A stretch of DNA of 64,000 nucleotides from assembly GCA_965207945.1 (NCBI GenBank), contig OZ242303.1, positions 61,199 to 125,198 of the forward strand. The letters are read 5' to 3'. Of this stretch, positions 40,592 to 64,000 are shown one piece after another (the first letter of the stretch is position 1; every line of letters begins with the position of its first letter). Source of the stretch: Gammaproteobacteria bacterium (GTDB taxonomy: Bacteria; Pseudomonadota; Gammaproteobacteria; CBDBNL01; JAAOII01). The translations under genes and the position numbers were made by a program. Below the pieces are notes generated by a model, which searched no databases, was not told where the DNA came from, and was given only the letters and a program-made list of their open reading frames with translations.

Positions 40592-42352
40592 ATGAACTGT
40601 TACAGAAAAATTAAGCGCTATATAAGCTTTTTCATTACGGCTATAATTCTCTCCTCATTAATTGCTTGCGGTGGAGACAGCGCAGCTACAGCTACCCCTG
40701 CTCCCGCCACAACTCCCCCTGCTCCCGCCACTGGCTCCCCTGGTCCTGCTGGTGTTACTGTTGTCATACTATCGGACTTCACTTCCTTGAGGATAACATG
40801 GGATAATATGCCACAAACCACCCGCTATGAAGTGTATGATAGCAGTGGGGTGAGAGTTGCCACTGTTACTCCTCCTGCCACTAGTTACACCGCCACAAAC
40901 CTATTGCCCAACACAAAATATACCTACGGTATCAAATCATGTAATCCATCTGGCTGCTCGGATTCCACTGAAGTATCTTTTACTACTAAGCCCATAGGTA
41001 CATCAAATGCCCCACAAGTTGCTGTAGTTACTTCAACTATTAGTACAGGAGTGATTTTCTTAAGGATTTCTTGGGACCGCATATCGGAAGTTACATCCTA
41101 CCAAATACTTAATCGGGCTGAGGAAGTGGTTGCAACAGTTCCAGCCCCATCTACCAGCTACATTATCACGCAACAATCAGTATATACCATATATAAATAT
41201 AAAGTTAGGGGCTGCTATGCCTCATCTGTCCCTGGAAGTTCCAATATATGCGGTGAGTTATCCCCAGCTGGCTCTGTTACCATTTCCACTGCTGACACTA
41301 ATATTATTAATAACAATACAGTTGGCGCTATAAGCATTAGTAACGCTACTGAACTTGCAGCTATCCGCACTAATAGCACTACTTTATCTGGCAACTATAA
41401 TCTAACTGGAAATATAGATCTATCCACCATACCTAATTGGCAGCCGATTGGCAACAAAACTAACGGGTTTACTGGCAGCTTTGATGGCAATGGTTACAAC
41501 ATAAGCGGAGTAAGTAGCTCGGGCTATCAACATGCTGGTCTGTTTGGTTATATGGAAAATGCAAATATAAGAAATATTCAGGTTTTGGTTGGTAATCTAT
41601 CATCACCAATATCTTATGCAGGAGGCCTGGTTGGTTTGGCTCGTTCAAGCGAGATTAGTAATTCTTATGTAGTAGTTGAAGGTAGTATATCATCAATATA
41701 TTCAGGAGGTCTGGTTGGCCATGCTGTCCGTAGTCGGATCAGCAATTCTCATGCAGTAGTTGAAGGGAGCATATCATCCTCATTTTCTGCAGGAGGTCTG
41801 GTTGGCTGGGCTGATAAAAGCTCAATAGGCAATTCTTATGCATTAGTTGCAGGCAGCATATCAGCATCAACATCATCAGATTATTCAACATATTCAGGAG
41901 GTCTGGTTGGCTGGGCTGATGAAAGCTCAATAAGTAATTCTTATGCATTAGTTGCAGGCAGTATATCAGCATCATCATCAAAATATGTTGGTTTTTCAGG
42001 AGGTCTGGTTGGCTTAGCTGAGAATAACTTGATTATCAATTCTTATGCAGCAGTTGCGGGCAGTATATCATCATCATCTAATCCTAGTTTTAGTACTTAT
42101 GCAGGAGGCCTGGTTGGCGAAGGCGATAATATGGATATTAAACGTTCTTATTACAACGGCAGCCGTAAATCTTCGGAAGGGGGATTTAGCAACACTCTCG
42201 GCACTTCTGAAACCCTTAGCGGATTGCGCAGATTAACTGCTGCGACTACTGGCTGGGACACAGGCATCTGGAATTTCGGTGCTGCTACTAACCTGCCGAC
42301 GTTGGTTGATAATCCTCTTACCGTGACTTTGCCGCCAGCTTTTCGGGAGTAG
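40592..42352 (+). CDS. P1: surface lipoprotein with two fibronectin-III-like domains followed by GLUG-like beta-helix repeats. The ORF is open from 40451, but the ATG at 40592 precedes the lipoprotein signal.
   Basis: The lipobox is LIACG. The FN3-like segments are (L/V)RI(T/S)WD…RYEVY…TSYT…NLLPNTKYTY. An NWQPIG…FTGSFDGNGYNISGV module is followed by repeated GGLVGx6-8SxIxNSYA units. Confidence 0.7.
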   Translation: MNCYRKIKRYISFFITAIILSSLIACGGDSAATATPAPATTPPAPATGSPGPAGVTVVILSDFTSLRITWDNMPQTTRYEVYDSSGVRVATVTPPATSYTATNLLPNTKYTYGIKSCNPSGCSDSTEVSFTTKPIGTSNAPQVAVVTSTISTGVIFLRISWDRISEVTSYQILNRAEEVVATVPAPSTSYIITQQSVYTIYKYKVRGCYASSVPGSSNICGELSPAGSVTISTADTNIINNNTVGAISISNATELAAIRTNSTTLSGNYNLTGNIDLSTIPNWQPIGNKTNGFTGSFDGNGYNISGVSSSGYQHAGLFGYMENANIRNIQVLVGNLSSPISYAGGLVGLARSSEISNSYVVVEGSISSIYSGGLVGHAVRSRISNSHAVVEGSISSSFSAGGLVGWADKSSIGNSYALVAGSISASTSSDYSTYSGGLVGWADESSISNSYALVAGSISASSSKYVGFSGGLVGLAENNLIINSYAAVAGSISSSSNPSFSTYAGGLVGEGDNMDIKRSYYNGSRKSSEGGFSNTLGTSETLSGLRRLTAATTGWDTGIWNFGAATNLPTLVDNPLTVTLPPAFRE

Positions 42353-42540
42353 ATTTGTAAGGGGGGGATAATACATATATAAGTGCGTTGCGAGCATGAG
42401 GATAGTTTATAGCAAGAGTTAAACATTTAGCGGACGGAGCCAGGGGGGATGAATATAGGCCCTCCGCCCCTACAGACCTGAGTTGCAAGGATTTATGTAT
42501 TATGTAAATTTGTGGACGCTGTAAAATAATTGATATGGCG

Positions 42541-42570
42541 GTTGTATTTTGGAGGGGATAGTGTTATAAT
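42541..42570 (+). promoter_or_regulatory. Candidate sigma-70 promoter for P2: TTGTAT, 17 bp, TATAAT.
   Basis: -35 at 42541-42546, a 17-nt spacer and a perfect -10 at 42564-42569. It lies in the 285-bp gap upstream of the second GLUG-repeat gene. Confidence 0.4.
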
Positions 42571-42646
42571 GGGCTTCTGTTAAATAAAGGGATTTAATAG
42601 AAGGGATTATTATACAAAGGGGATTTATACACAAGGGGTGATTCAA

Positions 42647-45600
42647 ATGAGGGGAATTAATCAATCAAAGATTAGTCAATTAATGGCTAATACATTAAGG
42701 ATTAGTGCATCAAAACTTAATAGCAACAAGCTATTTTTACAAGCGTTGTTATTTAGCGTTGCGCTGCTTGGCGCCTGTAGTTTAGATGTAAGCGTGTCTG
42801 ATGGAGAAGACGTTGCTTCGGTTCCACCGCAGCAGCCACAACCACCAGAGCAGCCAGGTATCCCGCCAGAGTATAATCCCCAGGAGCGATTTCCTGACAG
42901 CATCATCTTTGATGCGGATGGAGATGGAATTGTTAATGCTTATGACTTTGCTCATCTTGATAGCAATGTTCAGGTTAGAGGCAGAGGCACCCTTGATAAT
43001 CCTTTTATTATTCGTAATATTTATCAGTTGCAAGCAATTGCTGGAGTTGACCATACAGGGGTTGTATTGGACTCATCAAAATTCACTGATAGCACTTGGC
43101 TTTATGGCAACAGCAGAAGAGGGCAGCTCGGTAAGGCATACACCCTTGACAACAATATAGACGCAGCGCCAACCCGCGACTGGAATCATTATAGGGTGCA
43201 CGGTGTCTCAGAGGGATTATATCCGATAGGCAATTGCGGCAGAGACAATATCTGTAATAGTTTTGATGATTTACCTTTTAGCGGTAGTTTTATTGCTTCC
43301 TCTTTTTCCATTAATAACTTATATATACTACAGTCGTTTTTAAATGGAGTCGGCTTGTTCGGCATGGTTGCGGAGGATGCAGTTGTCGCTTCCCTGCGCT
43401 TAATTGGATTTGAGGTTAGCGGTAATAATAAAGTTGGTGGTTTGGCTGGCTTTAACGAAGGAACGCTTGGGGATATTTATGCTTATGGGACAGTTAACAG
43501 CAGATCAGAAGCTGGCGGGTTAGTTGGTGTTAACCGCAAGGATATTATTAATTCTTATGTCGGTGGCATAACTAATGGCGTGGATGTCACAGGCGGAATG
43601 GTGGGGCGCAATCAAGGCAAGGTTGAACACTCATCTTCCGCTGCCATAGTGCATGGCGGATCTTTTTCTGGTGGGATGATTGGCGTCAATGATGCTACTG
43701 GATTAATTGATTATTCTTTTGCGTTAGGAAAGATTATCGCCACTTCCGTAGTTGGTGGATTAGTAGGCAGCAATAATGGCAAGACACTTAATTCTTATGC
43801 CAGCGGCAATATGCATGCCGATGAAGAGGTGGGCGGTTTAGTCGGTAATAATCAAGGTTCAGTGGTTAGTTCTTATGCCTCAGGGAATGTCATCGGCGAG
43901 ATAAGTGTAGGCGGTTTGGTTGGCATGGGTGAAGGTCTTATAGATTATTCTTATGCGCACGGCAGTGTTACAGGAGGTAAAAAAGTTGGCGGCTTGGTAG
44001 GTTTCCAAAACGCTCATTCAGGAATATCATCTTCATATTCTACAGGGGCGGTGACAGGCACCAGCTTTGTCGGTGGATTGGTGGGTTATAGCTTAGCGGA
44101 TGCTTCTTTTTCATCATACTGGGATATACAAAGTAGCGGGCAGACGCAAAGTTTTGGTGGCTCTGCAGTGCAGGGTGTTACCACAGAGCAATTGAAAAAC
44201 TGCGGCATCAATGGCATCAGAGTTAACGATAATTTAGCTGTTGACTGTTCTGACTTATTTCCAGGAGATCTGTGGGATAGTAGGGATAACTCCGATGGCT
44301 CATCAACCTTATGGGACTTCTCATCTTCACAACACTACCCGCTTCTTACAGTTGGAGGTAAAAAACCTGGACGGATTAGATTTAGTGGCAGCTCTAACTT
44401 GCTACCCAATGAGATTTGTTTTGATATTGACAATATACGAGGAACATGTGTGAATAATATCTATGTGTTGGATGCAATTCAAGGGCTGGAAGTTGGCAGG
44501 ATTCTCGTAGCAAATAATAAGAATGCTTATTCTAAATTCACCTATACTTTTGCTGATGCCGATGCTAATGCCGACACTGACGCCGATGATAGCACCAATA
44601 ATATTAACAGGAGCATCACAGAATTATTTGCCATTGACTCAGATAGCGGTGTTATTACTATGGTGCGCAATGCCACTGTTGATGATATTGCTGCGTATCA
44701 GATGACTATTATAGCCCGCCCACAGAATCAACTACCAGGAAGAGAAGTTGAGCGCAGGCAACTTGTGGTTGAGTTTACTGCAGAGCTCACCAATGGAGAG
44801 CCGTTCTTTGATAAGCAAGATTATTCTTTCTCCAATCTGCCTGGTTATTTTATTACCCCTCTCGTTATGGTTAGTGCTGTAGACCCAGAAGGAGGAGATA
44901 TCTTATATACACTGGATTCCCCAGCAGCAACTCTGTTTCAAATAAGCGACACCGGCATAATAACTCCACGTAGTAATCTTGCTGCGGGTAAATATACAAT
45001 TGAGGTTACTGCCACTGATGAGGCAGGAGTATCCACCAGTAAAATTGCGCTGCTATATATAGCGTATGAGGATGCAGATAGAGATTTAGTGGTGGACCAT
45101 TATGATGCATTCCCTAATGATGCCTCAAAGTTTTCAAATGGTACTGGCACTGCCGAAGACCCTTTTATTATTAGCAACATATATCAGTTACAGGCAATCT
45201 CAGGATTTGATCATACATATAAAATAATTTCAAAAGCCGATTCATTAACAGGCGGCAGCTGGCTGTATGGCACAAGTCGTCTGGAACAACTTAACAACCA
45301 TTATCAACTTGCCAATAATATAAACGCCACGATTACTCATACTTGGTCCCCACATATTGCGGACGGAACAGAGGTCTCACCCGAGAATACACTATCTGGG
45401 TTTATACCTATCGGTAATTGCATAACTAACAAATCTTTTTCATGCGATGCAGGTGATACACAATTCTCTGGTTCTTTTGATGGTCGCGGCAATAGCATCA
45501 ACAACTTGCATATTAATTCTACGCAGGGGGAAAGAATAGCCCTGTTTGGCTCGCTTGCCTCAAATGGCAGCATAACCTCAGTAGGACTTCAAAACGTTGA

Positions 45601-46333
45601 TATATATGGTGGCAATAATGTTGCCGCTTTGGTTGGAGAAAACCATGGTTCGATCACCGCATCTTATGCTACTGGCAGGGTGGAGTTGTTTAGTAATGGT
45701 GGTATGTTGGCTGGATATAACAAGGGCGATATATATGCATCTTATGCAACAGGTAATTTGCATGGTTCTTTTGATGTCGGTGGATTAGCAGGTTACCATG
45801 AATTTGGCAACATAACTTCTTCTTACGCAGCCGTTAACATAATAGGCGGTTCGGCAAGTGGTGGTTTTGTCGGTCAGGCATTGCAGGGGTTCATTTATGC
45901 TACTTATTCTACGAGTATTATAAATTCTGAGGAGGGTGGTAGTGCCTTTGCGCACAGTAGATTATTGACTGTTATCTATTCATCTTATTGGGATAATAGA
46001 ACTAGTGGGGTGGATGTTGACATAGAAGATGATTTGATTGAGGATAAGAACTATTCCCCTACATCCATAACAACCCAACGTTTGCAGGGTTGTGGTAGAA
46101 ATGGAATACCTACGAGGGACTACTCAGGCAATGATTGTCTTGGAGTTTTTCCTGAAGTAGTATGGGGGGATGTTACAAACTCTCGCGGCATGACGATAGG
46201 TTGGATTTTTGAGCCCTTTAATCATTACCCTAAGTTAAGAGTGGTGGATAAGTTAGGCAACTCTTTAATGCCAAGCCCTGTAGAACAGTTCTGTCATCGT
46301 CAAGGGCTTTTCCTTGGCTGCTCAAATAATTAA
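42647..46333 (+). CDS. P2: large GLUG-repeat surface lipoprotein (about 1228 aa) with an internally duplicated module and a cadherin-like segment. A GTG at 42638 is also in frame.
   Basis: The lipobox is LLGAC. There are two copies of the D-x-D-x-D-G + PFII(R/S)NIYQLQAI(A/S)G(V/F)DHT + WLYG(N/T)SR module, each followed by GGLVG/NSYA repeats. The central segment AIDSDSGVITMVRNATVDD resembles a cadherin-like domain. Confidence 0.75.
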   Translation: MRGINQSKISQLMANTLRISASKLNSNKLFLQALLFSVALLGACSLDVSVSDGEDVASVPPQQPQPPEQPGIPPEYNPQERFPDSIIFDADGDGIVNAYDFAHLDSNVQVRGRGTLDNPFIIRNIYQLQAIAGVDHTGVVLDSSKFTDSTWLYGNSRRGQLGKAYTLDNNIDAAPTRDWNHYRVHGVSEGLYPIGNCGRDNICNSFDDLPFSGSFIASSFSINNLYILQSFLNGVGLFGMVAEDAVVASLRLIGFEVSGNNKVGGLAGFNEGTLGDIYAYGTVNSRSEAGGLVGVNRKDIINSYVGGITNGVDVTGGMVGRNQGKVEHSSSAAIVHGGSFSGGMIGVNDATGLIDYSFALGKIIATSVVGGLVGSNNGKTLNSYASGNMHADEEVGGLVGNNQGSVVSSYASGNVIGEISVGGLVGMGEGLIDYSYAHGSVTGGKKVGGLVGFQNAHSGISSSYSTGAVTGTSFVGGLVGYSLADASFSSYWDIQSSGQTQSFGGSAVQGVTTEQLKNCGINGIRVNDNLAVDCSDLFPGDLWDSRDNSDGSSTLWDFSSSQHYPLLTVGGKKPGRIRFSGSSNLLPNEICFDIDNIRGTCVNNIYVLDAIQGLEVGRILVANNKNAYSKFTYTFADADANADTDADDSTNNINRSITELFAIDSDSGVITMVRNATVDDIAAYQMTIIARPQNQLPGREVERRQLVVEFTAELTNGEPFFDKQDYSFSNLPGYFITPLVMVSAVDPEGGDILYTLDSPAATLFQISDTGIITPRSNLAAGKYTIEVTATDEAGVSTSKIALLYIAYEDADRDLVVDHYDAFPNDASKFSNGTGTAEDPFIISNIYQLQAISGFDHTYKIISKADSLTGGSWLYGTSRLEQLNNHYQLANNINATITHTWSPHIADGTEVSPENTLSGFIPIGNCITNKSFSCDAGDTQFSGSFDGRGNSINNLHINSTQGERIALFGSLASNGSITSVGLQNVDIYGGNNVAALVGENHGSITASYATGRVELFSNGGMLAGYNKGDIYASYATGNLHGSFDVGGLAGYHEFGNITSSYAAVNIIGGSASGGFVGQALQGFIYATYSTSIINSEEGGSAFAHSRLLTVIYSSYWDNRTSGVDVDIEDDLIEDKNYSPTSITTQRLQGCGRNGIPTRDYSGNDCLGVFPEVVWGDVTNSRGMTIGWIFEPFNHYPKLRVVDKLGNSLMPSPVEQFCHRQGLFLGCSNN

Positions 46334-46355
46334 TTAATAAAGGAGGTATATACAA

Positions 46356-48908
46356 ATGAGGAGGAAGTTCATAGAGAAGCTTATTAAGTTTCAGGCGGCA
46401 TTGATGCCGTGGCATGTCTTTAACAAACATAACATAAGCATTGTAATTTTATCATTTATGGCTTTAGTGCTAACATCTTGTGGTTCAAGCGATAATTCTG
46501 GGACTACGCGCCCGTTTGTCAACGAAGTTATTTCAGTGGAACAAAATGCGCCTATACTGGATAATGAGGGCAATCTGGAAAGAAGCGGACATCTTTTTGT
46601 TAGCTTATCCGTAGACGAATTATTTTGGCGGCAGGTATCACAGGCAACAAGTAAAATAGAAGTTGTTAATGAAGATACTGAAGAGAGTGTAGAAATAACG
46701 GTTCCCCTTGCCTATCTGGCAAATAGCTGGAGGGTTGATTTTGGTTTTGTCTATCCTGGCAACTATACCCTTGCCGCAACCTTTTCTCGTGTAGATGGCG
46801 TAAATATAAACGGCACAGACATTGCTTATATTGAAACTCCTATTCAGATTACTCAGGGCGAAGAAGAAAACTCCTTCATTTATTTTGATGTAGATTCTGC
46901 TCTTATTATAATTCCACCGCAGAGGTTAGTGGACACAGATGGTAACGGTCTGCTGGAAATAATAGATATGGCTCAATTTGAAGATGTCCGTGGAAATCCA
47001 AACGGCAACTATGAGTTGACGCGTGATTTTGACCTGACGAGATACCTCAATTACAAAACTCCTATTGACTCCATGGACTATAGATTAGGACGTAGCTTTG
47101 GGAAATGGCAGCCCATCGGCAAAGATGAGTTTACTCCTTTTACTGGCATATTTGAAGGTAACGGTTATACCATTAGCGGCGTTTCCGTTGAGGGGTTTGA
47201 GTATACTGGCTTTTTTGGCTATGTTAGGGGAGCAACAATTAGCAACACTGACTTTAACATAACGAGCATCAGCGGCAATTCTCATGTTGGCGGTTTAGCG
47301 GGCATTGCAACAACTAATAGCCGCATCAGCAATGTGAATGTTACTATAAGTGGAGATTTATCTAGCACAGCTTTAAATGACAAAGATAACTTATTTGTCG
47401 GTGGTCTACTCGGAAAGGGTGATGATATTTTTATGGTTGATTCTTATGCTACTATTGAGGGGGATATCTATGCAAGTGGCGGAGCTTCATCGCGAGTAGG
47501 TGGATTAGCTGGCAACATATATCGCAGCATAATTCAAAACCCTAAGGTCAGGGTTGCTGGAGATATACTATTGTCTGCAACTGGGGATGATTCATTAGGT
47601 GGAGGATTGGCTGGCATGTCAGAGCAAAACCAAATAATCAATCCGCAAATTACGGTTGGCGGCAAAATATCTTCTTTCCCAGTTCTTGAGTCCGCTAGTA
47701 ATTTTGTAGGTTCTTTTAAGTTAGGTGGCATGGCAGGCATAGCTTATGATACTGATATTAAAAATATTACTATTGAAGTTGATAATGGTATCATGGCTCA
47801 ATCCGCAGGGTATTCCTACTTGGGCGGTTTAGCCGGAGATATGGATGGCACGGATATACAAGAGGCACTTATTCGTATAGGTCAACCTATCAGTGCTGAA
47901 CTGTTAGATAGTGGCAGCTGGGTTGGAGGCGTGGCAGGAAGTGCCCGTAATGCTCTGGTGAATGCTACCGATGTGATTGTTGATGATCTAAAGATTACCT
48001 CTTCTGCACAAGCTAATAATTATGGCGGCGGCTTATTCGGCTTTGCTCGCCAAGTTGATATGGCTTCTATAGTTTTATCCGTAGAAGAGGTTGATGTTTC
48101 TGCGATTAATCATAATGCTTTTGCTGCTGGTTTGATTGGTGTTAGTGAGGATAATAATATCAACAAAGTGTCTATGTCCGTAAATAAGATCACTGCCTCT
48201 GCCCCACGTTCAGAGGGCTACAGCAGCGGCTTGATAGGGGTATCGGATGGCGATGAAATTACTGATGTATTTTTGGGCACCTCCTCTACCATAAATGCTG
48301 TTGGGCGGACAACTACCTCAGCAACAGGAGGGATTGGTTCTTTTGTTGACGGCACTCTATCATCATCATATTTTCTTATGGGTGGTAATATACACTCATT
48401 ATCAATGGGTGAAGTTAATGAGTTGGCTAATACTTATGCATCAGGAGTTGTAGGGTTTTGTAGTTTTTGTGAGATGAGTAACATTTATGTAGAGGCGGAA
48501 AGAAATATAAGCGCTTCCGCGACAGGAACGGTCTCAGTCGGCGGCATTATAGGAGCAGCAAGTTCTGCTTCAGTTATTACAAACTCTTACGCGGTTATCA
48601 GGGGAGATATATCTGCGCCTTACCCTCATTCTTATACTGGTGGATTAGCAGGATGGATATTAAATGGTGAGCTGGCAGCAACTGGAGTTTATTATCTGGC
48701 AAATCGCGCCACAAGCCAGAACAGTGGTATTTTTGAGAGTTCAGCTGGTGAGGCACGTAGTTTGCAACAGCTAAGTTGTCCTACTGCACCCAATGCCAGC
48801 TGCGAACTCCAGGGAAATGGCGTTACCTATTCTGATTGGGATGAGAGTATATGGAACTTTGGCACGACAGACGATCTGCCAGAATTACGGATTTTTCAAA
48901 ATTTTTAA
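46356..48908 (+). CDS. P3: GLUG-repeat surface lipoprotein (850 aa).
   Basis: GGAGG Shine-Dalgarno, lipobox VLTSC, the W(Q)PIG…FTGIFEGNGYTISGVS module, then GGLAG/GGLVG beta-helix-type repeats. The conserved C-terminus is ELQGNGVTYSDWDESIWNFGTTDDLPELRIF. Confidence 0.75.
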   Translation: MRRKFIEKLIKFQAALMPWHVFNKHNISIVILSFMALVLTSCGSSDNSGTTRPFVNEVISVEQNAPILDNEGNLERSGHLFVSLSVDELFWRQVSQATSKIEVVNEDTEESVEITVPLAYLANSWRVDFGFVYPGNYTLAATFSRVDGVNINGTDIAYIETPIQITQGEEENSFIYFDVDSALIIIPPQRLVDTDGNGLLEIIDMAQFEDVRGNPNGNYELTRDFDLTRYLNYKTPIDSMDYRLGRSFGKWQPIGKDEFTPFTGIFEGNGYTISGVSVEGFEYTGFFGYVRGATISNTDFNITSISGNSHVGGLAGIATTNSRISNVNVTISGDLSSTALNDKDNLFVGGLLGKGDDIFMVDSYATIEGDIYASGGASSRVGGLAGNIYRSIIQNPKVRVAGDILLSATGDDSLGGGLAGMSEQNQIINPQITVGGKISSFPVLESASNFVGSFKLGGMAGIAYDTDIKNITIEVDNGIMAQSAGYSYLGGLAGDMDGTDIQEALIRIGQPISAELLDSGSWVGGVAGSARNALVNATDVIVDDLKITSSAQANNYGGGLFGFARQVDMASIVLSVEEVDVSAINHNAFAAGLIGVSEDNNINKVSMSVNKITASAPRSEGYSSGLIGVSDGDEITDVFLGTSSTINAVGRTTTSATGGIGSFVDGTLSSSYFLMGGNIHSLSMGEVNELANTYASGVVGFCSFCEMSNIYVEAERNISASATGTVSVGGIIGAASSASVITNSYAVIRGDISAPYPHSYTGGLAGWILNGELAATGVYYLANRATSQNSGIFESSAGEARSLQQLSCPTAPNASCELQGNGVTYSDWDESIWNFGTTDDLPELRIFQNF

Positions 48909-48933
48909 TATGATTAACAGGGAGGATTAATTT

Positions 48934-51690
48934 ATGCAAGCGGAGGTTATTAAAACAAGGGCTATTATGGCTGTCTTGTTGCTGGCAGCACTGTTCAGCG
49001 GCTGCAGTTCCAGCAGTAAATCAAACAGCAGTGGGGCGTCACAGAATCCAGCGCAGAGTCGCGGGGAAGCCAGGGAAGAGCTGGGGACGATAAAAGAACC
49101 GGCTTCAAGTGGCGAGATAAACAATGAATATAGTCCAGGCAGTGGGCGTCTTATTGTTAAGTTGGAAATTCTTGATAACTTAATTAGTTATGAGCAGGTA
49201 TCGTATGCGCGAGTCCATATAACTCCGCAGGACCTGACGGGCAAGGTGGGAGAATATTTATCGCTGCCAGAAGATTCCGCACCACAAGATGAGATTCCAC
49301 TTGACATTGATGCCTCGCTGGGCATTGATGTAGCGCTTAGCGTGGGGGATGAAAGCGCCCGTCTGGACTTTGGCTATGTTGCTTTTGGACGCTACATCCT
49401 CAATGCGACAATCTATCATAACAACGGCAGAGCTCTTGCTTATAGCGAATTACTTATTGATGTTGGCTTGGCGGACGATGTCCAAGTTGGCGACTCCCAA
49501 GTTGGCGACTCCCAGATTGACGACACCCAGATTGACGACACCCAAACAGGCGAAGCAGAAGTTCCAATAGAGTATATTCGTCCGAATCCTGATGCGACAG
49601 ATACCGCTTTAGCGGAATATACAGCTACACTCATTTTTGATTTATCTTCGGCTTTGTTTCGTCTGGTAACTCTGCCGTTAGTTTTTACTGATGATGATAA
49701 TGATGGACTACTGGATGTCTGGCATCCCGCCTATCTTGCAGCAATTGCTAATGACTTAGATGGCGGATTGGATGGCAGCTATGAACTGACAGAAGATATT
49801 GACTTATCTTCCTATGATAACCGGGGAAACTGGGACAACCGGGGAAACTGGCAGCCACTGGGCAGTGAAGAGCAGCCCTTTAGGGGAACTTTTGTTGGCA
49901 ATGGTCATAGCATTAGAGGTCTCTCCGTCAAGGGACATAGCAGAGCCGGCTTATTCGCCGCTTTAGATGGAGCGAGCGTAAGAGACCTGATGGTTGAGGT
50001 GTGGCAGATTAATGCATCTAACTATAATGATGCTTCATATAGCGCTGGTTTTGCGGGAGCTGTTGCGGGGCTTGCCACTCATAGTACTTTTGCCAACATT
50101 ACAGTTGAGATGAATTCTTATGACGATGAATCACCATACATAACTGCATTTGCACAAGATGGTGTAACTTATGTTGGTGGCTTGGTTGGCCGCGTCAGGA
50201 ATAGCGTCATAGATAACACAACAATTATGGCGAACGGCATAATATCAGCCATGTCATTGGGAGATGACTATAGGGCACGTTCTTACGTTGGTGGATTGGC
50301 TGGATTAGTTAATCTATTCAATGAAATTACAAATGTTGAAGTTGTTGGGGAAGTTGATTTGCTGGCGAGCAGCTTTGATGGGGTATCAATGGGTGGTCTG
50401 ATAGGGTCGCTAACAAGGAGTGAAGTTAGTGCGGCAAGGGTTGCACTTAGCGGCGACATAATATCTTATAGTGATAATAATTATTTATTATCTGGCGGCG
50501 CAGTGGGAGAATGCAGCAGCTCTCCTATTGTTGATATGAATATTTTTGTTGAAGGAAATATACTGGCGGAATCATCCGGGGGTGGTGGTGATGTCTATGT
50601 TGGCGGAGCTATTGGGGAAGCAGACCGTTGCAACATTATCAATTTAAAAACAGATACTTATGGGACCATTAGCACTACAGGCAGTTATGCGGATAGAACT
50701 TATTTTAGCACAGGAGGTTTAGTGGGTTTTAGTCAACGGACGGAAACTAATCATGTTACGGTTACGCATAATGGCGATTTGCTTTCATTGGGTGATTCTT
50801 GCTATGTTGGTGCTGTAGTGGGTTACTCCTATTATGAAATAATGAATAATGTATCCGCAACAATTAATGGCAATCTAATCGCTGGAGCACCTAATAGTGA
50901 AGTTGGTATTTCTTTTAATTGCCATGTCGGGGGTATACTCGGTTATTCAGAAAATCTTATTGTAAGCAATTCTTATGCCATAGTTAATGGAGATGTTCTC
51001 TCTTATGCTAATAATAACCCTGCTAAGGCGGGAGGAATTGTGGGGAAAAATGAGAAAGACATAGAAATTGATAACTCTTATGCATTGATTAAAGGCAACT
51101 TGGCTGCCACTTCATTTTTTGCGCCGACTTATATAGGCGGTTTGGTTGGCGACTCTGATGGTGAGCTGTTGATAGTCCATGATTCTTATGTTCAGATTTT
51201 AGGCAATATAACCCTGCGGAGTATTTTTTCTGAGGATGAAAATGTCTCTTCTGGTGGAAACTTTGTTGGCATAACAAAGGGAGCTTATTTTGCTAACTCT
51301 TATGTTTTTATTGGCGGCAAGGCATCTGCCATAAATATACCGGTGCTCGGCACTTCTTCACCAGCCGTCTTTGGCGGTGCCTGGGGTGAGACAAAGATGA
51401 CTAACAATGACCCATATAGTATAACGTTGAGCTCGTCTTATTATAGGTCGCAGCGCGAGTTAGGTGAGGGTGGTTTTAATAGCGCTGAAGTGGACGGTGA
51501 TGCGATTGATGTAGATCGCAGTGACTTGCAACTACGTTGCCCGCAAGCGGCGGGACAAAATTGCGGAGGAGCCGTAACGCCAGGCAATCCGCAAACTTAT
51601 GTCGGTTGGGATGAGAGCGTATGGGACTTTGGTGCGGCAGACGAACTGCCCAGATTAAGAGTTTTTCCAAGTACTAATTTATTGGATTGA
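48934..51690 (+). CDS. P4: GLUG-repeat surface lipoprotein (918 aa), a member of the near-identical paralog set P4-P8.
   Basis: The GGAGGATTAATTT-ATG ribosome-binding site and lipobox LFSGC are conserved. So are the N-terminal ~130-aa block (GRLIVKLEILDNLISYE…), the DDDNDGLLDVWHPAYLAAIA and NWQPLGSE(E)QPFRGTFVGNGHSI(R/S)GLS module, and the C-terminus QLRCPQAAGQNCGG…TPGNPQTYVGWDESVWDFGAADELPRLRVF. Confidence 0.8.
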   Translation: MQAEVIKTRAIMAVLLLAALFSGCSSSSKSNSSGASQNPAQSRGEAREELGTIKEPASSGEINNEYSPGSGRLIVKLEILDNLISYEQVSYARVHITPQDLTGKVGEYLSLPEDSAPQDEIPLDIDASLGIDVALSVGDESARLDFGYVAFGRYILNATIYHNNGRALAYSELLIDVGLADDVQVGDSQVGDSQIDDTQIDDTQTGEAEVPIEYIRPNPDATDTALAEYTATLIFDLSSALFRLVTLPLVFTDDDNDGLLDVWHPAYLAAIANDLDGGLDGSYELTEDIDLSSYDNRGNWDNRGNWQPLGSEEQPFRGTFVGNGHSIRGLSVKGHSRAGLFAALDGASVRDLMVEVWQINASNYNDASYSAGFAGAVAGLATHSTFANITVEMNSYDDESPYITAFAQDGVTYVGGLVGRVRNSVIDNTTIMANGIISAMSLGDDYRARSYVGGLAGLVNLFNEITNVEVVGEVDLLASSFDGVSMGGLIGSLTRSEVSAARVALSGDIISYSDNNYLLSGGAVGECSSSPIVDMNIFVEGNILAESSGGGGDVYVGGAIGEADRCNIINLKTDTYGTISTTGSYADRTYFSTGGLVGFSQRTETNHVTVTHNGDLLSLGDSCYVGAVVGYSYYEIMNNVSATINGNLIAGAPNSEVGISFNCHVGGILGYSENLIVSNSYAIVNGDVLSYANNNPAKAGGIVGKNEKDIEIDNSYALIKGNLAATSFFAPTYIGGLVGDSDGELLIVHDSYVQILGNITLRSIFSEDENVSSGGNFVGITKGAYFANSYVFIGGKASAINIPVLGTSSPAVFGGAWGETKMTNNDPYSITLSSSYYRSQRELGEGGFNSAEVDGDAIDVDRSDLQLRCPQAAGQNCGGAVTPGNPQTYVGWDESVWDFGAADELPRLRVFPSTNLLD
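49483..49555 (+). repeat. Internal 15-bp x~5 in-frame repeat in P4 (QVGDS QVGDS QIDDT QIDDT QTGEA). Shorter versions occur in P5 (~52273-52310) and P8 (~60511-60565).
   Basis: caagttggcgactcc and cagattgacgacacc units lie head to tail. Confidence 0.8.
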
Positions 51691-51715
51691 CATGATTAAC
51701 AGTGAGGATTAATTC

Positions 51716-54442
51716 ATGCAAGCGGAGGTTATGAAAGCAGGGGGGATTACAACAAAGGGGATTACAACAAGAACTGTTATAGTGTTTTTGTTGCTGGCAG
51801 TCCTGTTCAGTGGCTGCAGTTCTAGCAGCAACTCAGGTGGTGCAAAATCGCCAGGGACGCCACAGCAGCCAGAGCAGAGTCGCGGGGAAGCTAGAGGAGA
51901 AGCTGGCGCGGGGCAACAACCGACTTCAAGCCCAATTTCAAGCGGTGAGATAAACAATGAATATACTCCTGGTAGTGGTCGCCTTATTGTTAAGTTAGAT
52001 ATTCTTGATAACTTAATTAGTTATGAGTCAGTATCGTTTGCGCGAGTATATATAACTCCGCTGGGCATAGATGCTGCGCATGATATTGATGACTCGCTGG
52101 GCATAGATGCCTCGCTTAGCATTGATGTTGCGCTTGATGTGGGAGATGAAAGCGCCCGTCTGGATTTTGGTTATGTTGCTTTTGGACGGTATATCCTCAA
52201 CGCGACAATCTATCACAGCAACGGCAGTGCTCTTGCTTATAGCCAGTCACTTATTGATATTGGTTTGGCGGATGACACCCAAGTTGGCGACACTCAAACA
52301 GGCGAAGCAGAAATCCAAATAGAATATATTCGTCCGAGTCCTGATGCAACAGATCCCAACTTAGCGGAATATACTGCCACGCTCATTTTTGATTTATCTT
52401 CATCTTTATTTCGTCTGGTAACTCTGCCATTAGTTTTTACTGATGATGATAATGATGGACTACTGGATGTTTGGCATCCCGCATATCTTGCGGCAATTGC
52501 TGATGACTTGACTGGTAGTTATGAATTAACGGCAGATTTGGATTTATCCTACTATAACGGTTGGGGTAACTGGCAGCCGCTGGGTAGTGAAGCATTACCT
52601 TTTAGCGGAACTTTTGTCGGCAATGGTCATAGCATTAGCGGACTCTCTAGCAAGGGATATAACAAAGCTGGCTTATTCGCCGTTGTAGAAGGAGCGAGCA
52701 TAACCGACCTTATAGTTGAGGCGTGGCAGATTAATGCATCGGACTATTACTATTCAAACGGTAATTTAAACGGAGATTTAAATGGGGCTTCTTATGCTGG
52801 CGTTGTTGCAGGTCTTGCCCGTTCCAGCACTTTTGCCAACATCACAGTTGTGATGAATTCTTATGACGATGAATCACCATATATAACTGCGTTGGCGCAA
52901 GATGGCGCAACTTATGTTGGTGGTTTGGTTGGTCGCGCCAGCAATAGCATTATAGCTAACACAACAATTGTGGCGAGTGGCATAATATCAGCCAATGCCT
53001 GGGGGAATAATAGTAGAGCGAAATCTTATGCTGGTGGGCTGGCAGGGTTGGTTGATGAAGGCAGTGAAGTTATGAATGTTGCGGTTACTGGGGAAGTTGA
53101 TGTGCGGGCGGACGGATTAACTGAAGCATTATCAGGCAATAAGTATGCTGGCGGTTTGTTAGGTAGAATAAATGATAGCAGAATAAGCGCGGTGAAAGTT
53201 GAGCTTAGTGGCGACATAATAGTTGATAATGGCAATTATTTATCAGCGGGCGGTGCAGTGGGCAACTGCAGGCACTCTTCCGTTGTTGATATGAATATTA
53301 TTATTGCTGGCAATATATTGGCGGAGTATTCTGGCAGGAATAACGATGCGGCTGCTGCTGGAGTACTTGGTGAGGTATTTCGTTGTGACATTACTAATGT
53401 AGTAAGCAAGTTCTTCGGTTTAATCAGCGCTGAAGGTTATGGTTATGTGACTGCAGGAGGGTTAATGGGATATGCTGAATATACGGCAATCAGCAATGTT
53501 AAGGTTACCCACCATGGCGATTTACTCTCATCAGGTGATTATTGCTACGTTGGCGGTTTAGCAGCTTACCACTCTTCATCTACTGCTCCCATACATAATT
53601 CATCCGCAATAATTAATGGCAATATAATTGCGGGGGTACCTAATAGTGAAGTCGGAGTTTACCTTGATTGCGAAGCTGGAGGGATGATTGGTTATTTATC
53701 TGGAGGCACTATTAATAGTTCTTATGCCATAGTTAATGGAGATGTTCGCTCTTATTCTAGTGGTAAACCTTCTGAGGTGGGAGGATTTGTGGGGAGTGGC
53801 ACTGGTGAACTAAAAATTGAGAAATCTTATGCATTGATTAAAGGTAACTTGGTTGCCTCTTCATTTTTTGCGCCAACTTATGTTGGCGGTGTAGTCGGCA
53901 TCTCTTATGGTTCGTTGGTGACAGTCCGCGATTCTTATGTTCATATTTTAGGCAATATAACCCTGCGGAGTATTTTGTCTGAGGATGACGCCATTTCTTA
54001 TGGTGGCAATTTTATCGGCAGAGTAAAGGGAGCTAATTTTGCTAACACTTATGTTTTTATTGGTGGCACGGCATCTGCCATAAATATACCAGAGATCGGT
54101 ACTTCCTCGCCGGCTATCTTTGGCGGCGTTTGGGGTGCTATTTCAAAGAGGACTGCCAATGAATCGCATAATATCACATTTAGCTCTTCTTATTATAGAT
54201 CGCAGCGCGAGCCAAGGGAGGGTGATTTTAACAGCGCTGATGTGGGCGGCGATGCAATTGATGCGGCTCGTAGTGATTTGCAACTACGTTGTCCGCAAGC
54301 GGCGGGACAAAATTGTGGCGGACTCATAACACCAGGCAACCCACAAACTTATGTCGGTTGGGATGAGAACGTATGGGACTTTGGTGCGACGGACGAGCTG
54401 CCCAGATTAAGAGTTTTTCCAAGTACTAATTTATTGGATTGA
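51716..54442 (+). CDS. P5: GLUG-repeat surface lipoprotein (908 aa), paralog of P4.
   Basis: It has the same conserved 5' and 3' blocks and ribosome-binding site as P4, with a divergent central repeat region. Confidence 0.8.
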   Translation: MQAEVMKAGGITTKGITTRTVIVFLLLAVLFSGCSSSSNSGGAKSPGTPQQPEQSRGEARGEAGAGQQPTSSPISSGEINNEYTPGSGRLIVKLDILDNLISYESVSFARVYITPLGIDAAHDIDDSLGIDASLSIDVALDVGDESARLDFGYVAFGRYILNATIYHSNGSALAYSQSLIDIGLADDTQVGDTQTGEAEIQIEYIRPSPDATDPNLAEYTATLIFDLSSSLFRLVTLPLVFTDDDNDGLLDVWHPAYLAAIADDLTGSYELTADLDLSYYNGWGNWQPLGSEALPFSGTFVGNGHSISGLSSKGYNKAGLFAVVEGASITDLIVEAWQINASDYYYSNGNLNGDLNGASYAGVVAGLARSSTFANITVVMNSYDDESPYITALAQDGATYVGGLVGRASNSIIANTTIVASGIISANAWGNNSRAKSYAGGLAGLVDEGSEVMNVAVTGEVDVRADGLTEALSGNKYAGGLLGRINDSRISAVKVELSGDIIVDNGNYLSAGGAVGNCRHSSVVDMNIIIAGNILAEYSGRNNDAAAAGVLGEVFRCDITNVVSKFFGLISAEGYGYVTAGGLMGYAEYTAISNVKVTHHGDLLSSGDYCYVGGLAAYHSSSTAPIHNSSAIINGNIIAGVPNSEVGVYLDCEAGGMIGYLSGGTINSSYAIVNGDVRSYSSGKPSEVGGFVGSGTGELKIEKSYALIKGNLVASSFFAPTYVGGVVGISYGSLVTVRDSYVHILGNITLRSILSEDDAISYGGNFIGRVKGANFANTYVFIGGTASAINIPEIGTSSPAIFGGVWGAISKRTANESHNITFSSSYYRSQREPREGDFNSADVGGDAIDAARSDLQLRCPQAAGQNCGGLITPGNPQTYVGWDENVWDFGATDELPRLRVFPSTNLLD

Positions 54443-54467
54443 TATGATTAGCGGAGAGGATTAATTT

Positions 54468-57170: not shown

Positions 57171-57195
57171 TATAATTAACGGAGAGGATTAATTT

Positions 57196-59907: not shown

Positions 59908-59945
59908 TATATTGAATTAATATAATTAAAAGAGAGAATAAATTT

Positions 59946-62678: not shown

Positions 62679-62723
62679 TATTGATATTATTGTATTAATA
62701 TAATCAATGGAGAGGATTAATTT

Positions 62724-64000
62724 ATGAAGTGGGGGCTTCTTATATCTGCGCTATTATTGGCTATGGCTACGACTAGCTGTAACAGAACTGAATATGTGAA
62801 TGATAGACAATTAGAGAATGAGCAAGGCATAGAACAACCGGTAGAAGAACAACCGGTAGAAGAACAACCGGGAGAAGAACAACCACCGAAGGAAGAAAAA
62901 CCACCGAAGGAAGAAAAACCACCGAAGGAAAAACCACCGAAGGAAGAAAAACCACCGAAGGAAGAAAAACCACCAAAGGAAAAACCACCAAAGGAAAAAC
63001 AACCGAAGGAAAAACAACCGAAGGAAGAACCACCGAAAGAAAAAAAACCGAAGGAAAAACCACCGAAAGAAAAAAAACCGAAAGATAAATGCCTGGATGT
63101 GGGAACAACAGATAAAGATAAAAATTTAAATAGCACATTAATTGATGGCGATGGAAACGGCTTATTGGATATTTGGAATCATCTGCAGCTTGCTGCAGTT
63201 TCCCATAATCTTACTGGTAATTATGAGTTGAAAAATCATATATCTTTATCGTCTTGCGCCAACGCTAACTGGCAGCCGTTAGGTAATGACACTATTCCAT
63301 TTAGTGGTGTCCTTGTTGGCAACGACTATGGCATAAGCAACTTAGTTAGCAAGGGCTATCGCAGCGGTGGATTATTTGGAGTTATACAAGATGCGACAAT
63401 AAGTAATCTCATAATTGATGTAAAGCATATTAACTCAACCCAATATTCTGGCTCTCTTACGGGGTTGGCTAATTCTGGTGTGCTTGAGAATATTACAGTT
63501 CGCCTGCTTTCTTCCACAGATGAGATGCCTCATATAACGGCGGTTGCTTCATCTGGCGTGGCGAATGCTGGTGGTTTAATTGGCGGAGCTAACAATATCA
63601 TCATCAATAACGCAACAATTATAGCGGCAGATAGCACAATCTCTGCTTATGCTATTGATAATAACACATCAAAAGAAGCGTATGCTGGCGGATTGGTGGG
63701 GATGCTTAACCGCGGCACTGTAACCAATACCGCGGTCATGGGTGAAGTTAATGTACTGGCGTACGCGTTAGAGTATTCAGTTTCTAAAGCCCATGCTGGT
63801 GGTTTAGTAGGAGACGTAAGAAGAAGCAAGTTAATAGATACCCGAATTGAGATTAGTGGAGATGTAATAAGTAGTAGCAAAGATTTAGTGTCGTCTGGCG
63901 GGGTGGTGGGAAATTGTTTTCATTCCCCCTTTGATGGCATGGATATAATTTTCAAAGGGAGTGTATTAGTAGTGGAGCAGAAATATTCTAATATAGCTGC
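62724..64000 (+). CDS. P9: GLUG-repeat surface lipoprotein, 3'-partial (runs off the window), with a Pro/Lys/Glu-rich (PKEEK) linker.
   Basis: An ATG at 62724 follows GGAGGATTAATTT and the lipobox is ATTSC. The (E)EQPVEEQP…PPKEEKPPKEEK… repeats are followed by DGDGNGLLDIWNHLQLAAV…NWQPLGNDTIPFSGVLVGN…GGLIG/GGLVG repeats. The ORF track omits it because no stop occurs before the window ends. Confidence 0.75.
   Translation, partial: MKWGLLISALLLAMATTSCNRTEYVNDRQLENEQGIEQPVEEQPVEEQPGEEQPPKEEKPPKEEKPPKEKPPKEEKPPKEEKPPKEKPPKEKQPKEKQPKEEPPKEKKPKEKPPKEKKPKDKCLDVGTTDKDKNLNSTLIDGDGNGLLDIWNHLQLAAVSHNLTGNYELKNHISLSSCANANWQPLGNDTIPFSGVLVGNDYGISNLVSKGYRSGGLFGVIQDATISNLIIDVKHINSTQYSGSLTGLANSGVLENITVRLLSSTDEMPHITAVASSGVANAGGLIGGANNIIINNATIIAADSTISAYAIDNNTSKEAYAGGLVGMLNRGTVTNTAVMGEVNVLAYALEYSVSKAHAGGLVGDVRRSKLIDTRIEISGDVISSSKDLVSSGGVVGNCFHSPFDGMDIIFKGSVLVVEQKYSNIA
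62832..63085 (+). repeat. Coding microsatellite-like repeats of 12-18-bp units encoding EEQPV/PPKEEK/KPPKEK in the P9 N-terminal linker.
   Basis: aaccggtagaagaac, ccaccgaaggaagaaaaa and ccaccgaaggaaaaa units recur directly in the sequence. Confidence 0.85.

Follow-up and report, generated by a model that had tools for sequence, protein, structure and literature searches.

A Shine-Dalgarno-like 15-nucleotide unit repeated in the leader and at the start codons of a GLUG lipoprotein gene cluster

The leader of P2, the first gene of the GLUG lipoprotein series P2 to P9, carries four degenerate copies of a ~15-nt unit that resembles the genes' own ribosome-binding sites (RBS), and further copies continue past the start codon into the signal-peptide coding region. 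The motif is concentrated at the starts of the GLUG lipoprotein genes in the window, by which we mean the whole 64,000-nucleotide stretch of DNA analysed here. Its leader copies are conserved among related strains, its coding copies vary in number, and a distant homologue begins at another point of the array. The reading that we tentatively put forward, with less than even confidence, is that the element is a reiterated RBS module, phased like a Shine-Dalgarno (SD) sequence, which would act at the RNA level on translation initiation.

Results

Four units in the P2 leader

Between positions 42586 and 42646 of the forward strand, directly 5' of the P2 start codon (ATG 42647), four units of ~15 nt follow the pattern AAGGG(G)ATT plus an A/T-rich remainder. 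Units u1 (42586-42600, AAAGGGATTTAATAG), u2 (42601-42615, AAGGGATTATTATAC) and u3 (42616-42630, AAAGGGGATTTATAC) are SD-like and lack a start codon, and u4 (42631-42646, ACAAGGGGTGATTCAA) is the SD site of P2 (GGGGTGAT, ~4-5 nt before the ATG). The series runs on beyond the ATG as AGGGGAATTAATCAA (RGINQ), TCAAAGATTAGTCAA (SKISQ) and further P2 codons, and the motif is found both 5' and 3' of start codons.

A 15-nt weight matrix trained solely on 50 distinct coding units of the P4-P8 family matched the region at 8 bits or more at 42617, 42635 and 42649, with the highest regional score (13.7 bits) at 42635 in u4 and a weaker match of 5.7 bits at 42600. As the background is 25 matches per 80 kb of strand, only 0.03 matches are expected in the 95 nt from 42571 to 42665, compared with the three observed (Poisson P = 4e-6). 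The consensus AAGGGGATTWAWAYA, with up to three mismatches, has 49 matches in the window, where shuffled sequence gives 18.6 ± 4.3; four of the 49 lie in the P2 leader and the remainder mostly at the starts of P4-P9. The matrix and shuffle statistics rule out a chance origin of the leader units. The repeats occupy the non-coding leader and run into the P2 start, as noticed in a sequence-only reading that preceded this work. The leader units are nonetheless degenerate: TRF reports just 1.9 copies (14-nt period, score 43), a repeat search returned 20-nt copies of 75% identity, and the core-to-core spacing is 14-18 nt rather than a strict 15.

The P2 start is the same ATG in the gene calls of four other genomes, and the only ATG, GTG or TTG codon in the leader is GTG 42638, which abuts a G-run. 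With no ATG or TTG and this lone GTG, an upstream open reading frame or leader peptide was rejected; a minus-strand frame at 42500-42664 is no more than a mechanical listing.

Coding units in the signal-peptide n-regions

P2 (42647-46333, forward strand, as are all features below) encodes a GLUG/cadherin-domain lipoprotein with a Pfam Glug match and a lipobox LLGAC, the cysteine codon of which is at 42776-42778; its orthologues are 92-96% identical and start at the equivalent ATG. Its coding units (42650-42724) read RGINQ, SKISQ, LMANT, LRISA and SKLNS, with 15 nt each, and form part of the signal-peptide n-region. In P3, the RBS TAAAGGAGGTATATACAA is followed by ATG 46356 and two 15-nt units, RKFIE and KLIKF (46338-46394 in all). 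The RBS module of P4, AACAGGGAGGATTAATTT, precedes ATG 48934 and a single unit, GAGGTTATTAAAACA (EVIKT; 48916-48957). P5 has its module and three units, EVMKA, GGITT and KGITT, at 51698-51769 (ATG 51716), P6 has six units at 54450-54566 (ATG 54468), and P7 has four, GGIKT, GGIKI, ERIKI and KIIKT, at 57178-57264 (ATG 57196). P8 combines a weak RBS with five units plus one partial unit at 59928-60044 (ATG 59946), and an internal in-frame ATG at 60003-60005 is kept in all orthologues. The arrays of P5 to P8 are reported by TRF. P9 has the RBS module alone, AATGGAGAGGATTAATTT, without coding units (62706-62726, ATG 62724).

Every gene from P2 to P8 thus has coding units in its signal-peptide n-region, at strictly 15 nt per unit. 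Read by eye, the lipoprotein signal peptides consist of a charged n-region, a hydrophobic stretch and a lipobox, which is LLGAC in P2, LTSC in P3 and LFSGC in P4-P8. Pfam searches with P1-P5 and P8 at E ≤ 0.001 returned only Glug, fn3, Cadherin and Peptidase_M26_N, and the N-terminal extensions of these proteins matched neither PF13018 (ESPR) nor PF00805 (pentapeptide repeat).

Codon choice within the units preserves the G-run and the A-run against genome codon usage. Glycine is encoded by GGG in 30 of 36 cases, compared with 13-19% genome-wide, and GAG is used in 19 of 19, although these statistics are inflated by founder effects because related units are treated as independent. For lysine, the first position of the unit has AAG and the fourth has AAA. 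The isoleucine codon, on the other hand, varies at the wobble base alone (ATT, ATA or ATC), a coding-level signature that points to a peptide constraint too. The sequence-only reading had taken the element to be primarily a nucleic-acid-level signal. At least in part this view holds, given the presence of the motif on both sides of start codons, its likeness to the RBS, its concentration at GLUG lipoprotein gene starts, the constraint on the leader and the codon choice.

Promoter and operon

A putative sigma-70 promoter of P2 occupies 42542-42570, with TTGTAT at 42542-42547, a 17-nt spacer and TATAAT at 42565-42570, the latter forming an extended -10 (TGTTATAAT, 42562-42570). A consensus promoter scan did not call it, because the -35 element fits at only three of six positions. 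The promoter, which the sequence-only reading had already picked out, is near-invariant in five genomes, where a single C/T difference lies 5' of the -35, and is identical at 23 of 29 positions in the distant homologue L004. The spacers between P2 and P9 measure 22-45 nt, and none contains a terminator-like match. P2-P9 would thus form one probable operon, and 42542-42570 probably drives the whole of it; both the promoter and the transcription start remain putative.

Predicted structure of the leader

A 12-bp hairpin is predicted at 42574-42603, the likely start of the mRNA, and its loop, AAAGGG, contains the G-run of u1. The inverted repeat is 92% complementary and appears in both the minimum free energy (MFE) and centroid folds, and the modelled pairing survives an A-to-G difference of other strains as U.G, the variants being too few for covariation. 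The leader as a whole folds with z = -1.9 and has no stable predicted structure beyond this 5' hairpin, the folds of five other GLUG leaders gave no structure in common, and u4 and the P2 ATG are essentially unpaired in the MFE and centroid folds. Rfam returned no family for 42300-42800 up to E = 10, and over the whole window only two tRNAs. An RNA G-quadruplex is unlikely, as the loops between G-runs span 11-13 nt and P5 and P7 have two or three runs only.

Fixed leader copies and variable coding copies

We compared the window with four close relatives (L002, L003, L007 and L009). The bacteria are probably symbionts, with genomes of ~2 Mb and several strains co-existing in one sample; as to more distant orthologous leaders, the genome collection covers one genome of the clade (OZ242292.1). 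In the P2 leader, 6 of 84 columns are polymorphic (7%), compared with 90 of 491 four-fold sites (18%; P = 0.011), and for promoter and leader together the figure is 7 of 129 (5.4%; P = 1e-4 against four-fold sites). The number of leader units is four in all five genomes. A 1-nt indel lies at the 5' edge of u1, and polymorphisms also fall inside units, in u3 and u4 of L002; u4 reads GGGGTGA in the window, L003, L007 and L009, and GGGGAGA in L002. Based on six variable columns in five close genomes, these data indicate that the non-coding copies are under purifying selection. P2 codons 2-30 are hypervariable, with 42.5% polymorphic columns and a 5-residue gap that corresponds to one additional unit in L009.

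Across the co-occurring strains, the P4-P8 coding arrays contain 1-7 units and change in 15-nt steps, with identical neighbours side by side. P3 has one or two units in other strains, P4 orthologues have 1, 2, 3 or 4, P5 orthologues 1, 3, 3 and 4 in DNA (and five in the P0123 protein), P7 orthologues 2 to 7 and P8 orthologues 3 to 7. All 26 arrays, from six sequences, are in frame, which dismisses frameshift phase variation through the G-tracts; G-tract length varies just in a non-coding element at 42364 (7 versus 5 G). Switching by repeat number, through either frameshift or promoter spacing, is likewise rejected, with a unit of 15 nt and repeats that lie 3' of the -10 box.

These counts do not agree with the earlier proposal that a regulatory element had been co-opted into coding sequence in the younger paralogs. 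Coding units are present in all of P2-P8, P2 and P3 included, and copy number follows the strain and not the age of the paralog (1-4 units in both P4 and P5). The wobble-only variation of the isoleucine codon, as a mark of coding sequence, also counts against the proposal.

A start codon shifted within the array

In L004, the protein body of which is only 36% identical to that of P2, the ATG aligns in frame with AAG 42617-42619 of the window. The L004 start lies two units earlier, and the homologous units are therefore coding in L004 and leader in P2: u3 and u4 read KGIYT QGVIQ in the P2 frame, and their L004 counterparts encode M-GVYKR-GAYSR-GVHKS. The alignment shows a start codon that moved within the array, and coding sequence can become leader as easily as leader becomes coding. 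The leader-to-coding direction assumed by the sequence-only reading is not supported by this comparison; the coding unit can, moreover, be derived from resident n-region codons, EVIKT, present once in P4.

Likeness to ribosome-binding sites

The unit (GAGAGGATTAAAACA) resembles the genes' own RBS (GAGAGGATTAATTT-ATG), and the RBS of P4, P6, P7 and P9 score 8-10 bits with the coding-unit matrix. Of the 50 cluster genes, 40 have an SD-like motif between -20 and -4, compared with 11 of 58 other genes. Pairing with the anti-SD was computed with the canonical 16S tail, which is assumed here, the organism's own tail lying outside the window. By this measure u3, u4, c1 (the first coding unit of P2) and nearly all coding units form duplexes within the top 2% of 9-mers, phased at 15 nt, and the energies of u3, u4, c1 and most coding units range from -7.7 to -10.8 kcal/mol, with u4 at -7.7. 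Pairing of u1 and u2 (AAGGGA) is weak. A working SD-to-start distance (~5-10 nt) is held by u4 and by the modules of P3-P7 and P9.

Discussion

A reiterated ribosome-binding module

According to the reading that we tentatively favour, each ~15-nt unit would consist of a purine-rich G-run able to pair with the 16S anti-SD tail, followed by AUU and an A/U-rich spacer. The P2 leader would hold four fixed, degenerate copies, the fourth serving as the working SD and the upstream three being retained by selection. Units u1-u3, with u1 displayed in the loop of the predicted 5' hairpin, may act as auxiliary docking sites for the 30S subunit on the mRNA, in a standby or decoy role, and so set initiation at the first gene. 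Within the n-regions, the module would have been multiplied by replication slippage in a strict register of 15 nt (five codons), where repeats may be tolerated because this segment is cleaved off the mature protein. Rapid changes in copy number would then alter the translation-initiation region, and would also make the n-region longer or shorter and change its charge. The period would comprise a G-run and a spacer to the first codon of the next unit that resembles an SD-to-start distance (~8-10 nt), and a one-base change could therefore make or remove a start codon with a ready SD. The classical standby model demands a masked RBS, and the RBS of P2 is not predicted to be structured. To our knowledge, no positive role in initiation is accepted for SD-like sequences 3' of a start codon.

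A bolder version of this proposal, which we hold with considerable doubt, regards the array as an SD-phased minisatellite and a distinct type of tuning element, in which the 15-nt unit is at once a ribosome or regulator site and five codons of disposable n-region. Slippage would dial translation and export gene by gene and leave the mature lipoprotein untouched, start codons would hop along the array, and the fixed leader copies would provide a regulatory anchor for the whole operon.

Alternative readings

The sequence features suit a GGA-binding protein equally well, and the main rival to the RBS module, in our estimate a rather unlikely one, is that the units are sites for an RNA-binding repressor of the CsrA/RsmA type. 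By reaching from the hairpin-loop site across to the SD, a bound dimer would keep the ribosome out, and the degree of repression would depend on the number of coding copies. GGA motifs occur in u1, u2, u3 and c1 (and in L002 also in u4, which reads GGGGAGA there), u1 and u2 read AGGGA and match A-N-GGA, and the G-run of u1 is predicted to lie in a six-base hairpin loop. In the coding arrays GGA is kept in most internal units despite amino-acid changes (GGG, AGG or TGG before ATT), but the first and last units (EVMKA, KIIKT) do not have it. The layout is similar to that of the E. coli glgC leader, where CsrA binds at four sites, of which one lies in a hairpin loop and another covers the SD (PMC7652899), and the organism is labelled as a member of the Gammaproteobacteria, the class in which Csr/Rsm is best studied (PMC7652899). 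However, u4 of the window (GGGGTGA) contains no GGA, the nearest one being 3' of the ATG at +7; the predicted hairpin places the A of GGA in a base pair; the SELEX-consensus context ACA...GGA...GU is absent; and no Rfam family matches the region.

Less likely still is that the leader units are relics, left when slippage-born coding repeats fell outside the gene as the P2 start moved downstream (ATG to AAG at 42617-42619). Function would then be confined to the promoter, the 5' hairpin and the final SD, u1-u3 would have no role, and the coding repeats would be neutral variation in length. The resemblance of u3 and u4 to coding units in the P2 frame and the coding status of their L004 homologues are what this account predicts for two of the four units; u1 and u2, however, are out of the P2 frame (ATT spacings of 14 and 17 nt). 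The hypervariable coding arrays fit weak constraint, the wobble-only isoleucine variation accords with this account too, and the L002 leader polymorphisms fall within u3 and u4, but polymorphic columns are ~2.5 times rarer across the whole leader than among four-fold sites. Against the relic reading, too, the coding-unit codons preserve the G-run in spite of genome usage, and similar G-run units stand beside the starts of several non-orthologous GLUG genes.

A role at the DNA level is improbable, whether as direct-repeat operators just 3' of the promoter or as patches for recombination or gene conversion between the 5' ends of tandem paralogs. In its favour, the direct repeats share one orientation and adjoin the conserved promoter, which is itself flanked by another repeat pair (CTGTAAAATAA / CTGTTAAATAA), and paralog 5' ends are mosaic (P4 orthologues of L003 and L009 have the P8-type start MRAGGIK). 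Against it, a 15-16 bp period places consecutive sites on opposite helix faces, the motif occurs on the sense strand exclusively and goes with start codons and RBS, not with promoters, the short spacers leave P3-P9 no room for promoters, and paralogs that are 60-90% identical recombine without a special signal.

If the RBS module is real, a battery of surface lipoproteins would be varied in expression or export efficiency by in-frame repeats, a mode of variation that differs from frameshift phase variation and is invisible at the protein level because the repeats are removed from the mature protein. The cluster would also offer a natural test system for the role of SD-like sequences 5' and immediately 3' of a start codon, and for the weight of signal-peptide n-region length and charge, with the related strains, in which unit number runs from 1 to 7, providing a natural allelic series. 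The start-codon shift gives a direct view of how untranslated sequence can turn into coding sequence and vice versa.

Relation to known systems

The arrangement of u1-u4 together with repeats inside signal peptides is unusual, and it probably tunes translation or export. A full HMMER scan of 1.84 billion representative sequences with the P8 N-terminus yielded two repetitive proteins, both irrelevant, and nothing else. A synthetic repeat peptide used as the query of a word-indexed search gave zero candidates, an uninformative result. In JGI metagenomes the promoter pattern matched 14 times, in unrelated sequence and close to the chance number estimated by hand, and we found nothing relevant in the literature on n-region repeat variation and on GLUG proteins in symbionts.

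The ESPR (PF13018) of autotransporters and two-partner secretion proteins is likewise an unusually long N-terminal extension, placed ahead of an ordinary signal peptide in large surface proteins, and GLUG repeats occur in some of these; here, in contrast, the extension is a variable pentapeptide repeat on lipoprotein signal peptides with a lipobox. In Neisseria opa genes, CTCTT repeats inside the signal-peptide coding region constitute a contingency locus, and the GLUG cluster shares with them tandem repeats in the signal-peptide part, membership of a surface-protein multigene family and strain variability through slippage. The repeats described here, however, lie in the charged n-region outside the hydrophobic core, a fixed non-coding set is present in the leader too, and, because the unit is 15 nt, there is no frame shift or ON/OFF switching. 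The 7-bp repeats of H. influenzae hmw and the AGAT repeats of M. catarrhalis uspA2 are promoter-to-start "volume controls" thought to grade expression. They too are short tandem units between a promoter and an adhesin-type coding sequence, whereas the number of P2 leader units is fixed in five genomes and the variable copies are the coding ones.

Like leaders under CsrA/RsmA control, that of glgC for example, the P2 leader has several purine-rich GGA motifs, here at intervals of 14-18 nt within ~70 nt; one of them may occupy a hairpin loop and one may lie at the SD or beside it, and the target would be a surface-protein operon. The present unit differs in being longer (G-run, AUU and an A-rich part) and in continuing into the coding region as a strict in-frame array of strain-variable copy number. 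With SD and standby sites, finally, the array has in common the anti-SD complementarity, a last unit at working distance and single-stranded A/U-rich flanks upstream. It differs from them in that its phased copies number four to eight, mostly have no start codon of their own and in many cases come after the start, and in a genuine RBS that is not predicted to be masked.

The P2 leader and its promoter

Between 42586 and 42646 lie four units of 15–16 nt (u1, 42586–42600; u2, 42601–42615; u3, 42616–42630; u4, 42631–42646), which share AAGGG(G)ATT followed by an A/T-rich stretch. The last of these is the Shine-Dalgarno (SD) site of the lipoprotein gene P2, about 4–5 nt upstream of its ATG, and the pattern carries on past that ATG in P2 coding units of 15 nt each (RGINQ, SKISQ and others). 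The leader units are degenerate, being scarcely detected by TRF and returned by the repeat search as 20-mers of 75% identity. The sequence-only reading had quoted this stretch, which matches the window exactly, and had related it to the coding repeats of P5–P8, a kinship that proved statistically solid. A 15-nt weight matrix trained on nothing but coding units of the P4–P8 family (50 distinct ones) found three matches scoring 8 bits or more within the 95-nt interval, against 0.03 expected (P = 4e-6), and a consensus search of the window returned 49 matches against 18.6 in shuffles, clustered in the leader and at the P4–P9 starts. All independent gene calls place the P2 start at the identical ATG, a 1-nt indel separates genomes at the 5′ edge of u1, and the leader holds no usable start codon upstream of the P2 ATG; on these grounds the leader region is non-coding.

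The promoter hexamers are present as they had been described. The −35 element is weak, and a consensus scan did not call the promoter. It is nevertheless credible, since the −10 is extended, the sequence hardly varies among five genomes and a distant homologue has it too; the transcription start is inferred. A direct repeat, CTGTAAAATAA (42519–42529) and CTGTTAAATAA (42577–42587), 58 bp apart, brackets the putative promoter and may be a protein-binding pair.

Organization of the locus

The window is a piece of bacterial chromosome (GC ~42%) that includes the housekeeping genes rpoD, purL, rpsA, hisD and tyrA-aroA. From 40.5 kb on, large lipoprotein genes, most of them with GLUG motifs, follow head-to-tail: P1 (probable start 40493), P2 (42647–46333), P3 (46356–48908), the paralogs P4–P8 (48934–62678) and P9 (from 62724). 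The intergenic spacers from P2 to P9 measure just 22–45 nt; terminator-like matches occur at about shuffle expectation, with none inside these spacers. The genes probably make up a single operon, over 21 kb long, with the P2 leader at its head.

The source contig is 1.86 Mb long; among catalogued genomes its nearest relative is OZ242292.1 (‘MAG: Gammaproteobacteria bacterium’, 2.06 Mb). A matching gene array was recovered from four further genomes or strain contigs (L002/L006, L003, L007 and L009) and a partial one from L008; L002 and L007–L009 come from one sample and L003 from a different one. All but two of the comparison genomes are close, with 5–10% synonymous divergence. The 285 nt separating P1 from the conserved block, which begins near 42506, are strongly strain-variable. 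Mosaic intergenic repeat elements occupy 42353–42505 and comprise GTGCGTTGCGAGCA-type blocks together with a hairpin rich in GC, GGACGGAGCC...GGCCCTCCGCCCCTACAGACC; they, and not the leader units, account for the G-runs at 42364 and 42445. These elements, present also at L002:347–600, L005:18440–18690, L008:6920–7018 and 10350–10449, vary among strains in copy number and arrangement, appear again ahead of further GLUG or cadherin lipoprotein genes, and look like REP/MITE-type sequences.

Repeats also occur within two housekeeping genes. The unusually long purL ORF (7260–11507, minus strand; 1415 aa against a 1290-position profile), encoding FGAM synthase, contains a 45-bp tandem repeat at 8737–8899 (3.6 copies, 89% identity). 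RpoD (4454–7117; 887 aa) matches its 631-position profile from residue 243, and its N-terminal extension of ~240 residues carries short 12- and 24-bp tandem repeats (4722–4917).

Conservation and the position of the start codon

Across five genomes, 18.3% of P2 four-fold degenerate sites are polymorphic (90/491). Measured against these sites, the fraction falls to 7.1% from the −10 box to the ATG (6/84; P = 0.011) and to 5.4% over promoter and leader together (7/129; P = 1e-4), and it stands at 42.5% in P2 codons 2–30, which comprise coding units. The non-coding copies are thus constrained, and the coding copies turn over rapidly. P2 as a whole (42647–46333, compared with L002, L003, L007 and L009) is a fast-evolving protein, with amino-acid identity of 93–96% at only 6–11% four-fold differences and a dN/dS of roughly 0.4–0.5, as would fit a surface protein on which selection is relaxed or diversifying.

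The P2 promoter, leader and first units also align with a distant homologue (L004, protein P0023), for which the promoter is identical at 23 of 29 positions and the leader at 44 of 67; the protein bodies are 36% and the coding DNA ~50% identical. The homologue's ATG aligns in frame with AAG 42617–42619, which lies 30 nt ahead of the P2 ATG, and GVYKR and GAYSR, the units that open the homologue's coding sequence, correspond to u3 and u4 (KGIYT and QGVIQ when read in frame), so that homologous units are coding in the homologue and leader in P2. A single base change would give back an ATG at 42617–42619, with u2 as its SD. The boundary between leader and coding sequence is also uncertain in P8, since the ribosome-binding site at its annotated start is weak, and an in-frame ATG within its array (60003–60005, EMIK) is kept in all P8 orthologues and preceded by AAGGAGGG in three strains (L002, L007 and L008); the real P8 start may be this internal one.

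Coding units in the signal peptides

All of the genes P2–P8 carry their units downstream of the start codon and ahead of the hydrophobic core and lipobox. This stretch is the n-region of the lipoprotein signal peptide, which is absent from the mature protein. In the P4–P8 family this region reads M-x-x followed by one to seven units of five residues, and the number varies among orthologues of one gene: 1, 2, 3 or 4 in P4, 1 to 4 at the DNA level in P5 (5 in one orthologous protein), 2 to 7 in P7 and 3 to 7 in P8. In P2 and P3 it varies by one. Steps are always of 15 nt and adjacent copies are often identical, as expected of slippage. The sequence-only reading had proposed co-option of the element in the younger paralogs, which finds no support here, as units occur in all of P2–P8 and their copy number depends on the strain. 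The paralog 5′ ends are partly mosaic: P4 begins MQAEVIKTR in the window (48934) and has a P8-type start, MRAGGIKIKW..., in L003 (10001) and L009 (7204), a pattern that indicates recombination or gene conversion among tandem-paralog 5′ ends.

Further in-frame tandem repeats are found in the mature lipoprotein regions (49482–49546, 52059–52127, 57572–57684 and 62831–63082), of 15 bp in P4 (DDTQI-type), 18/36/54 bp in P5 and P7 (GIDASL-type) and 15 bp in P9 (EEQP/KEKPP-type, ~17 copies). Their copy number differs among protein orthologues, for example TRIDD ×2 or ×4 in P0131 and P0132.

The coding units bear both nucleotide-level and protein-level signatures, and the proposal of a primarily nucleic-acid-level signal is borne out in part. 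In its favour, codon choice preserves the G-run and the A-run, contrary to genome usage: of 36 distinct Gly cases, 30 use GGG (13–19% genome-wide), all 19 Glu codons are GAG, and Lys is encoded by AAG at unit position 1 and by AAA at unit position 4. Because the units share descent, P values for codon choice are upper bounds on significance. The residue preceding Ile alternates between Gly, Arg and Trp (GGG, AGG, TGG) with GG-ATT retained. At the protein level, the Ile codon varies only at the wobble base (ATT 70, ATA 12, ATC 4), with ATG restricted to the first unit, as predicted if the units are translated in this frame and a hydrophobic residue is selected for.

Resemblance to ribosome-binding sites

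The consensus of the coding units, RRG-GGG-ATT-AAA-AYA, is similar to the ribosome-binding sites of the operon itself: P6, P7 and P9 have GAGAGGATTAATTT-ATG, compared with GAGAGGATTAAAACA in the unit, and these sites score 8–10 bits with the coding-unit matrix. Assuming a canonical 16S rRNA tail, u3, u4, the first P2 coding unit and almost all other coding units have anti-SD duplex energies in the top 2% of 9-mers, and the pairing units are 15 nt apart. Among cluster genes, 40 of 50 have an SD-like motif between −20 and −4, compared with 11 of 58 others; the SD-like unit is not the genome default. Most housekeeping genes (rpoD, purL, rpsA, hisD and others) are A/T-rich upstream and without a recognisable SD in a survey of gene starts (~28 ORFs in window 1–40476, and L001, L004 and L005), which were taken from longest ORFs or gene calls and may in some cases be wrong. 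Such rarity would be unexpected for a gammaproteobacterium. G-run units flank starts on both sides in GLUG lipoprotein genes beyond the P4–P8 family, both in this genome and in more distant ones: their initiation regions gave 9 matrix matches in 12, against 6 in 58 controls, and 7 of the 12 genes had a match, against 5 of 58 (P = 4e-4).

The 25-nt spacers before P4 (48909–48933), P5 (51691–51715) and P6 (54443–54467) each contain a seven-codon mini-ORF, ATG ATT AAC AGx GAG GAT TAA, that takes in the SD and stops 4 nt short of the next ATG; the P7 and P8 spacers have ATA in place of its ATG. It could be a coincidence or a translational-coupling device.

Discussion

Judged from its anatomy, the array fits a ribosome-binding-site module in reiterated form. 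Its period spans one G-run and the spacer up to the first codon of the next unit, which makes the module in frame and SD-phased at once. The leader copies would act on the mRNA at translation initiation as docking or decoy sites for the 30S subunit, with a predicted 5′ hairpin presenting the first G-run. The coding copies would be slippage products that alter the initiation region and the n-region and leave the mature protein unchanged. In the main rival reading, the leader units would be bound by a CsrA-type repressor that recognises GGA. A relic model, in which the leader units would be former codons stranded by the start shift, is less well supported, as are models in which the units act at the DNA level. 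Among known systems, the layout of the P2 leader is like that of the four-site glgC leader (PMC7652899), which speaks for a CsrA-type repressor.
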